Shown one piece after another: positions 44,427 to 47,400 of a DNA stretch of 64,000 nucleotides. The stretch's first letter is position 1; each line of letters begins with the position of its first letter. A program made the position numbers. Source of the DNA: Escherichia coli (GTDB lineage Bacteria; Pseudomonadota; Gammaproteobacteria; Enterobacterales; Enterobacteriaceae); NCBI RefSeq assembly GCF_024298765.1, contig NZ_CP101210.1. One strand, written 5' to 3'.

Positions 44427-47400
44427 AGGAGGTTGCTGCGCTCATGGCCTGCACGTCCAGGTAAGGGCAAGCGCGGGGATTTTCCCCGCGCATCTGACTA
44501 GCAGATTCATTTTCTCATGGCACCCCTTTTACACTTCAGTTAATGCATGTTTTTTTCGATGCACTAATAGAACCATCATTACAAACAAATTTGCCGCCTG
44601 CCGTACAGTGTGAGATCCCCCCTTTCGAACCAGAACAGGGTTTGCGCCCGGCATCGGCATAAAAGGAAACAAGCGTTCCTATAACCAAGATAAGTGCCAG
44701 TTTTTTCATATAACCTCCATGATTTATCGAATCTTATGTTCGATTTTAACGTTATACGCTGGTTTATTTTGATACCGTTGATGAGATCAAAGATCGGGTG
44801 AATTGATTAAAAATAAGCCAGATGGACGTATGGGCAAGGATTATGGTTTTATTTGTCATACAAATAAATATAATAGGCGCTTCCGATGTAGACCCGTATT
44901 CTTCGCCTGTACCACGGGTCGGTTTTAGTACAGGCGTTTTCTTTAAATATCCTTCAGGAACGTTTACGCGGCATCATGCGTAGAAGTGTGTTGTCCTTCC
45001 AGAAATAGTGGTGTGCCAGTGCAGCCGCAGCGTGCAACCCGATGACAAAATATCCCAGATTCGCCAGCGTTTCATGCCACGACTTTAAGCTATCAACCCG
45101 TTCGAAATTGGCCTCTGATGCATAAGGCATCGTCATACCAAACGCAAACCACGGGTTACCCCGGTTATACATCATCACCAAACCAATCACTGGCAGCGCA
45201 ATAAACAGGAGATAAATCACCAAATGGCCCAAATGCGCCAGTCCCGTCATCATCGGTTTTGGCTTAGGTATAATCGGCGGGGTTGGGTATTTCAGTCTTA
45301 ACAAAAGACGAACCACCATCAGTACGAGAATTGAGATGCCACAGGAAACATGAATCATGTTGATGAGGGGCCGATCGCTACGTGGGAAGAAACCACGAAA
45401 CTCCATTGCGCAATACGCTACGATAACCAGCAAAAAGACCAGCCAGTGAATGCTGATTTGTAACCTTGAGTATTTATTTCCCATAACATTTCCTGCTTTA
45501 ACATAATTTGCCGTTAACATAACGGGCTTTTCTTAAAATTTCATTAAATATTGTTCACCCGTTTTCAGTACGTTACGTTTCACTGCAAGAATGTAGATTG
45601 CCCATCCCGCCATCCTGGTCTAAGCCTGGAAAGGATCAATTTTCATCCGAACGTTCCTGACAGGAGAAGACCATGAGTAAAGTTGGTATTAATGGTTTTG
45701 GTCGTATCGGTCGACTGGTGTTGCGTCGATTACTTGAAGTCAAAAGCAACATAGACGTTGTCGCTATTAATGATCTCACTTCCCCAAAAATTCTCGCCTA
45801 CCTGCTGAAACATGATTCAAACTACGGACCGTTCCCCTGGAGCGTTGATTTTACGGAAGATTCACTTATCGTTGATGGAAAAAGTATCGCGGTTTACGCC
45901 GAAAAAGAGGCTAAAAATATTCCATGGAAAGCGAAAGGCGCAGAAATCATTGTCGAATGTACTGGCTTTTATACCTCCGCAGAGAAATCGCAGGCGCACC
46001 TTGATGCTGGTGCGAAGAAGGTGTTGATTTCCGCCCCTGCCGGTGAAATGAAAACTATCGTTTATAACGTCAATGACGACACTCTGGATGGCAACGACAC
46101 CATTGTTTCCGTGGCGTCATGCACCACTAACTGCCTTGCGCCGATGGCCAAAGCCTTGCATGACAGTTTCGGGATAGAAGTCGGCACGATGACGACCATT
46201 CATGCCTATACCGGCACCCAGTCACTGGTGGATGGTCCGCGTGGGAAGGATTTACGAGCTTCACGCGCAGCGGCAGAAAATATCATTCCCCACACTACAG
46301 GTGCGGCAAAAGCCATTGGTCTGGTGATCCCGGAACTGAGCGGCAAACTGAAAGGTCATGCGCAACGCGTGCCGGTGAAAACAGGTTCGGTCACTGAGCT
46401 GGTGTCCATTCTCGCAAAAAAAGTGACTGCCGAAGAGGTGAATAACGCACTTAAACAAGCAACCACCAATAACGAGTCATTTGGTTATACCGATGAAGAA
46501 ATAGTCTCTTCCGATATCATTGGCAGCCATTTCGGGTCGGTGTTTGATGCCACGCAAACGGAAATTACCGCCGTGGGCGATTTACAACTGGTGAAAACGG
46601 TCGCCTGGTACGATAACGAATATGGCTTCGTCACACAACTCATTCGCACCCTCGAAAAATTCGCTAAACTCTGACGCACACAGGCGGAGGAAAAACCTCC
46701 GCCTCTTCCACTCATTAAGACTGTAAATAAACCACCTGGGTCTGCAGATATTCATGCAAGCCATGTTTGCCATCTGCGCCGCCAATACCAGATTTACGCC
46801 ATCCGGCGTGGAATCCTTGCATAGCTTCGAAGTTTTCACGGTTGATGTAAGTTTCACCAAACTTCAGCCCTTTAATGCCTTTCATCGCGACGTTCAGATT
46901 TTGGGTATAGATTGATGAGGTCAGGCCGTAATCACTATCATTCGCCATTGAGATAGCCTCTTCCAGCGTGTCAAATGCGACCACCGGCAGAACCGGGCCA
47001 AAGGTTTCCTCATGCATAATCGACATTTCCTGGCGAACATCCAGCAGCAATGTCGGCGGATAATAATATCCTTTCCCCTCTACCGCTTTGCCACCCAACG
47101 CCACTCTCGCCCCTTCTTCTACTGCGCGCGCCACTTTTTGCTCGACCCTTTCCAGCGCCGCGGCGTTAATCAACGGCCCCATCGCAATGTCGTTGCGTTC
47201 AGCGGGGTTACCAAATTGAACCGCCTGCATCGCTTCACCCAGCCGATTGACAAACTGATCATAAATGCCTTTCTGTACATAAACACGTTCTGCACAGTTA
47301 CACACTTGCCCACTATTAATGACGCGTGAATCAACGATGGCTTTGACTGCCAGTTCAAGATCGGCATCGTCCATTACGATAGCCGGTGCTTTACCCCCCA

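Follow-up and report, generated by a model that had tools for sequence, protein, structure and literature searches.

The closest described relative of the enzyme considered here is EcGAPDH1 (PDB 7C5F, 7C5H, 7C5P and related entries), which is reported as a purified, active NAD-dependent GAPDH whose Km for glyceraldehyde-3-phosphate (G3P) is 0.73 mM (Biomolecules 2021, PMC8615399). According to that report, the C150A mutation abolished the activity, H177A decreased it about 8000-fold, and a loss of about four orders of magnitude is given for C150S and H177A. Structures with NAD, G3P, phosphate and the thioacyl intermediate are also described, and the assay was performed at pH 10 and 50 °C, so that it says little on the physiological role (PMC8615399). 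In K-12, gapC (b4493; formerly gapC_1/gapC_2, b1417/b1416) is annotated as a 'pseudogene' of 1001 bp in MG1655 and as 'frameshifted; internal stop' in BW25113 (PGAP annotation). Intact gapC in natural isolates, as opposed to the mutated laboratory copies, goes back to Espinosa-Urgel & Kolter 1998 (as described in PMC2949598). An intact gapC is thus already known, from natural isolates in 1998 and by enzyme activity and structures in 2020-2021. The third relative, GapA (b1779), is the housekeeping glycolytic GAPDH encoded at a different locus. What GapC itself does physiologically is poorly defined; fresh water and stationary phase are the settings to which the literature points.

We analysed a 64,000-nucleotide stretch of Escherichia coli DNA (contig NZ_CP101210.1), hereafter the window. 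An ORF listing of positions 44500-48000 revealed gapC as a single unbroken frame of 333 aa, which most probably (we put it at about 0.93) is an intact allele of the chromosomal gapC, encoding a type I NAD-dependent phosphorylating GAPDH and representing the normal state of the species. The features of the frame are as follows.

45673..46674, plus strand, gapC CDS: ATG start, 333 codons and a TGA stop
45662..45666, plus strand, Shine-Dalgarno-like AGGAG, 6 nt 5' of the gapC ATG, in a placement that matches K-12
45694..45711, plus strand, NAD-binding glycine motif GFGRIG, gapC codons 8-13 (G8-F-G-R-I-G13)
45787..45789, plus strand, gapC codon 39, AAA (Lys); a TAA stop in K-12
46120..46122, plus strand, TGC codon of the catalytic Cys150, within SCTTNC of the gapC translation
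46201..46203, plus strand, CAT codon of His177 in the gapC translation, the catalytic base
46414..46422, plus strand, gapC codon 248, GCA (Ala), then the A7 run (46416-46422); A6 in K-12, which is the frameshift

The encoded protein covers the whole of the NCBIfam model for type I GAPDH (TIGR01534; model positions 1-330 of 330) with 448.4 bits against a cut-off of 367.2. It contains the Pfam domains Gp_dh_N (PF00044; residues 3-102, 123 bits) and Gp_dh_C (PF02800; residues 155-313, 196 bits). Residues Asp34, Ser120, Cys150, His177, Thr180, Thr182 and Arg232 are all found, with Cys150 and His177 aligned to the catalytic Cys and His of GapA. The GxGxxG motif is accompanied by Asp34, the acidic residue behind the preference for NAD over NADP; in EcGAPDH1, the reported NAD contacts include Arg11, Ile12, Asp34 and Ser120 (PMC8615399). 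By family membership and catalytic residues, the window ORF is a type I GAPDH. The original prediction of an intact 333-aa GAPDH frame with NAD-binding and catalytic Cys motifs is thus borne out by the ORF listing, the family score and the motifs.

Comparison with the PDB revealed that 332 of the 333 residues of the window GapC are identical to those of 7C5F and the related entries. The sole difference is at residue 248, which is Gly in EcGAPDH1 and Ala in the window; the PDB chains are also longer by 19 residues at the N-terminus (352 residues in all, with the match from residue 20). EcGAPDH1 is what the common intact allele of gapC encodes, and phosphorylating oxidation of G3P to 1,3-bisphosphoglycerate with NAD+ is experimentally reported for this Gly248 product (PMC8615399). 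In GapA the position aligned with residue 248 is Glu, which makes the site look tolerant, and the Gly248Ala change in the window GapC is probably harmless. GapA and GapC are 46% identical (154/333); they share the fold, the catalytic Cys/His and the NAD-binding motifs, and presumably catalyze the same reaction. GapA is absent among the best 60 PDB matches listed for the gapC ORF, all of at least 302 bits; a direct BLASTP comparison of GapC with GapA gave 280 bits. The nearest structures from outside E. coli, 6IQM, 8HMN, 7WWW and 5J9G, yielded no useful text hits for a phylogenetic placement of gapC.

The published activity of this 332/333-identical protein supports, by analogy, the proposal that the strain may keep a functional second GAPDH (PMC8615399). 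The window allele would follow the standard phosphorylating GAPDH mechanism demonstrated for its near-identical counterpart. In this mechanism, Cys150 would attack glyceraldehyde-3-phosphate to form a thiohemiacetal, a hydride would pass to NAD+ with His177 as the base, and phosphate would finally split the thioacyl enzyme to yield 1,3-bisphosphoglycerate. One might instead consider that GapC has the GAPDH fold but acts mainly on another substrate or in another role, for example as an erythrose-4-phosphate dehydrogenase (Epd/GapB-like) or an arsenate-linked GAPDH, given that glycolysis in E. coli is already served by GapA, that functional divergence of paralogues in the GAPDH family has a precedent in Epd, and that the role of GapC in the cell is unsettled. 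However, with the Epd models GapC scored 277 bits (TIGR01532, cut-off 530.6) and 281 bits (NF010058, cut-off 539), and with the ArsJ-associated GAPDH model 308 bits (NF033735, cut-off 450), the general type I GAPDH model being the only one that it passed. Moreover, gapC has cybB and aldA as neighbours and no adjacent arsJ, and the near-identical EcGAPDH1 is reported to turn over G3P with NAD+, its crystals showing bound G3P and the thioacyl intermediate (PMC8615399). The failure of GapC at the Epd and ArsJ-linked cut-offs points to the standard phosphorylating mechanism, and we regard a different main substrate or role as extremely improbable.

The gene is flanked by cybB and a convergent aldA, and this position together with its high identity to K-12 gapC identifies it as the orthologue. 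The gene order trg, hokB, cybB (minus), gap (plus), aldA (minus), ydcF, hrpA is that of K-12, and the order from hokB to hrpA (hokB, cybB, gap, aldA, ydcF, hrpA) is common to K-12 and E. coli strain 104 (chicken, China). The window gapC matches the 'gap' CDS of strain 104 (WP_000048661.1) at every one of its 1002 bases (100%), and the whole window is 99.945% identical to the genome of that strain, with a short non-aligning stretch near 7.3-7.5 kb.

K-12 gapC occupies the same locus in the same orientation, with 97.5% nucleotide identity. A base-by-base alignment revealed 25 differences between the two copies, 21 of which are silent changes at third codon positions. The other four fall in three codons: R18G, codon 39, and two aligned at codon 248. 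Relative to the window, K-12 carries CGT->GGT at codon 18 (R18G) and AAA->TAA at codon 39 (window position 45787), the latter being the first lesion in the frame, and is one A short in the A7 run of codons 248-250 (window positions 46416-46422); the window gapC is free of all three changes. At codon 248 itself, the window has GCA (Ala) and K-12 has GGA (Gly). Comparison with ten other genomes, in which the common allele of this region is CTC GGA AAA AAA GTG, resolved the codon-248 event into the loss of one A in K-12 and the GCA of the window. Ala248 is a rare allele, since Gly (GGA) is found in all other genomes sampled. The A7-to-A6 loss in K-12 is a typical slippage deletion. The original remark that K-12 gapC is a frameshifted pseudogene is therefore correct as to the frameshift and the annotation, but incomplete in that it missed the earlier TAA39 stop. 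The alignment revealed no continuous frame common to both copies, and the indel that distinguishes them is A7/A6.

To count these alleles among 5426 complete E. coli genomes, of which 5417 contain gapC, we used allele-specific queries of 34-35 bases in which every 28-base seed word spans the lesion. The counts were as follows.

K-12 TAA39 allele (stop at codon 39): 1154/5426 genomes
AAA39 allele (intact at codon 39): 3711/5426 genomes
K-12 A6 allele (frameshift): 1050/5426 genomes

The count at the A7 site covers the K-12 A6 allele only, the A7 run being likely masked by the BLAST low-complexity filter. About 550 genomes match neither codon-39 35-mer. They include O157:H7, in which two nearby SNPs accompany an intact gapC, and this accounts for at least part of the non-matching genomes. 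The gene is annotated as intact in seven of eight genomes sampled from an identity-ranked list, and likewise in an O25:H4 strain taken from the list of codon-39 intact alleles. Sequencing or assembly error as the source of intactness is ruled out, as intact alleles are common to thousands of independent genomes. Intact gapC is the majority, ordinary and selectively maintained state of E. coli; the rarity implied by the original prediction is thus contradicted by the allele counts and the sampled genomes, besides the report of 1998. It is K-12 that is atypical at gapC, most E. coli carrying a second GAPDH gene with an enzymatically competent product, and the window gapC merits annotation as an ordinary CDS.

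Relative to the window gapC, the intact copies sampled carry 19-41 synonymous codon changes and 1-5 that alter the amino acid. Given about 239 synonymous and 760 non-synonymous sites, dN/dS is roughly 0.02-0.06, a sequence-based ratio that indicates purifying selection on gapC where it is intact. This synonymous excess bears on the idea that gapC is intact but silent, its frame not yet decayed and the gene making no contribution to the cell. K-12 and about 21% of the complete genomes do survive without an intact gapC, and a simple sigma-70 scan found no clear promoter for it: no convincing site emerged, the scan giving one site, within cybB, against 2.2 expected by chance. However, the intact alleles of distant lineages differ far more by synonymous than by amino-acid changes, which is unexpected under neutrality. 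Published data on expression point the same way: a sigma-S RNA polymerase ChIP-seq peak is reported in the gapC_1/cybB interval upstream of K-12 gapC (PMC4447067), and gapC_1 is listed among the regulated transcripts of carbon-limited K-12 cultures (PMC4512719). Environment-specific gapC promoter activity is also described (PMC2949598, citing Espinosa-Urgel & Kolter 1998), and an author of the 1998 study describes gapC as intact in environmental isolates, with fresh water as the preferred site of expression (PMC2949598). We thus consider a silent gene very unlikely and infer that gapC is expressed in the window strain.

The presumed promoter region lies in the divergent interval upstream of the gene.

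45485..45672, no strand assigned, divergent cybB-gapC intergenic region, presumed gapC promoter region, with upstream conservation with K-12

An aligned upstream stretch of 191 nt (45500-45690) is 98% identical to K-12. The mechanical ORF of cybB (44954-45520, minus strand) starts at an upstream ATG (45520) and encodes 188 aa, and the RefSeq annotation gives a 176-aa product starting at 45484; depending on the true start of cybB, the cybB-gapC intergenic region is 152 or 188 bp. Two small RNAs were also found nearby by Rfam, both above the gathering score: RydC (44880-44943, plus strand, 92.5 bits), which adjoins the stop-codon end of cybB on the opposite strand, and the sok antitoxin RNA of the hokB locus (44169-44320, plus strand, 104.8 bits).

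The distribution of the K-12 lesions enables us to propose a putative history of the broken allele. Carriers of the lesions include human, pig, chicken, frog, sediment and river-water isolates. The river-water isolate KFu023 (L013, 1004-2004) has both the stop and the frameshift, and the chicken isolate PK8241 (L010, 201-1202) has R18G and TAA39 with the A7 run intact. The alleles of PK8241, together with the difference between 1154 and 1050 genomes, suggest that the stop codon arose before the frameshift. These observations suggest the order TAA39, then A7->A6, in a natural rather than a laboratory lineage. K-12 would accordingly be part of a sub-lineage that arose in nature, makes up about a fifth of the sequenced genomes, and acquired the codon-39 nonsense mutation and later the one-base A7 slippage. 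We lean towards the reading that the K-12 type of gapC inactivation reflects an old series of alleles from nature (R18G and TAA39, then A7->A6), now carried by about a fifth of sequenced E. coli including a river-water isolate, and not the laboratory domestication to which the 1998 account points, with strong purifying selection acting in the rest. If so, GapC would have a real, niche-dependent role that a single large lineage in nature has given up. The modest addition made here is that the population count would turn the K-12 lesions from a laboratory artefact into a natural lineage marker.

As to the origin of the gene itself, one review refers to gapC as laterally acquired (PMC1796617). 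A recent horizontal acquisition was considered and rejected: it finds no compositional support, as gapC has a G+C content of 48.3% (window, 49.4%) and a GC3 of 49.4%, similar to its neighbours and gapA, and the gene is present in 5417 of the 5426 genomes. The unremarkable composition and near-universal presence imply that any transfer of gapC was old. Five gapC matches fall on plasmid-labelled records, which may reflect replicon mislabelling or a real regional transfer. Separately, the cattle isolate SMN152SH1 (L009, 201-1202) has an intact gapC with T152S in the active-site SCTTNC and also S245L.

On the 3' side, the 40-bp gap between the convergent gapC and aldA holds a hairpin.

46682..46704, no strand assigned, G+C-rich hairpin with a 9-bp stem and a 5-nt loop, -18 kcal/mol, z = -4.5

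The fold on the other strand is at least as good (-21.3 kcal/mol). UCUUCCACUCAUU directly follows the hairpin in place of a U-run, and the hairpin went uncalled in the consensus terminator scan. Of the good terminator originally assigned to gapC, the strong hairpin stands, but the U-tract is absent and the scan gives no call. It is possible that this is a shared intergenic hairpin serving as a bidirectional terminator without a canonical U-tract.

Several features elsewhere in the window were recorded in passing. According to the annotation of strain 104, positions of about 3200-11200 (minus strand) hold a toxin cluster of the type VI secretion Vgr / DcrB-related / RHS-repeat kind, followed downstream by small ORFs, and the sole stretch of the window that does not align with strain 104, about 7291-7466, lies inside the RHS gene. 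In the same annotation, the region of about 62100-63100 has paaY followed by only fragments of paaX and of a helix-turn-helix gene, and then ydbL. Set against the K-12 gene order, the window would thus lack the paa (phenylacetate) operon and the feaR-feaB-tynA region. Rfam matches above the gathering score were found for isrA (2294-2422, minus strand, 118.8 bits) and STnc490 (60876-60999, minus strand, 146.4 bits), the latter adjoining an IS200C transposase gene.
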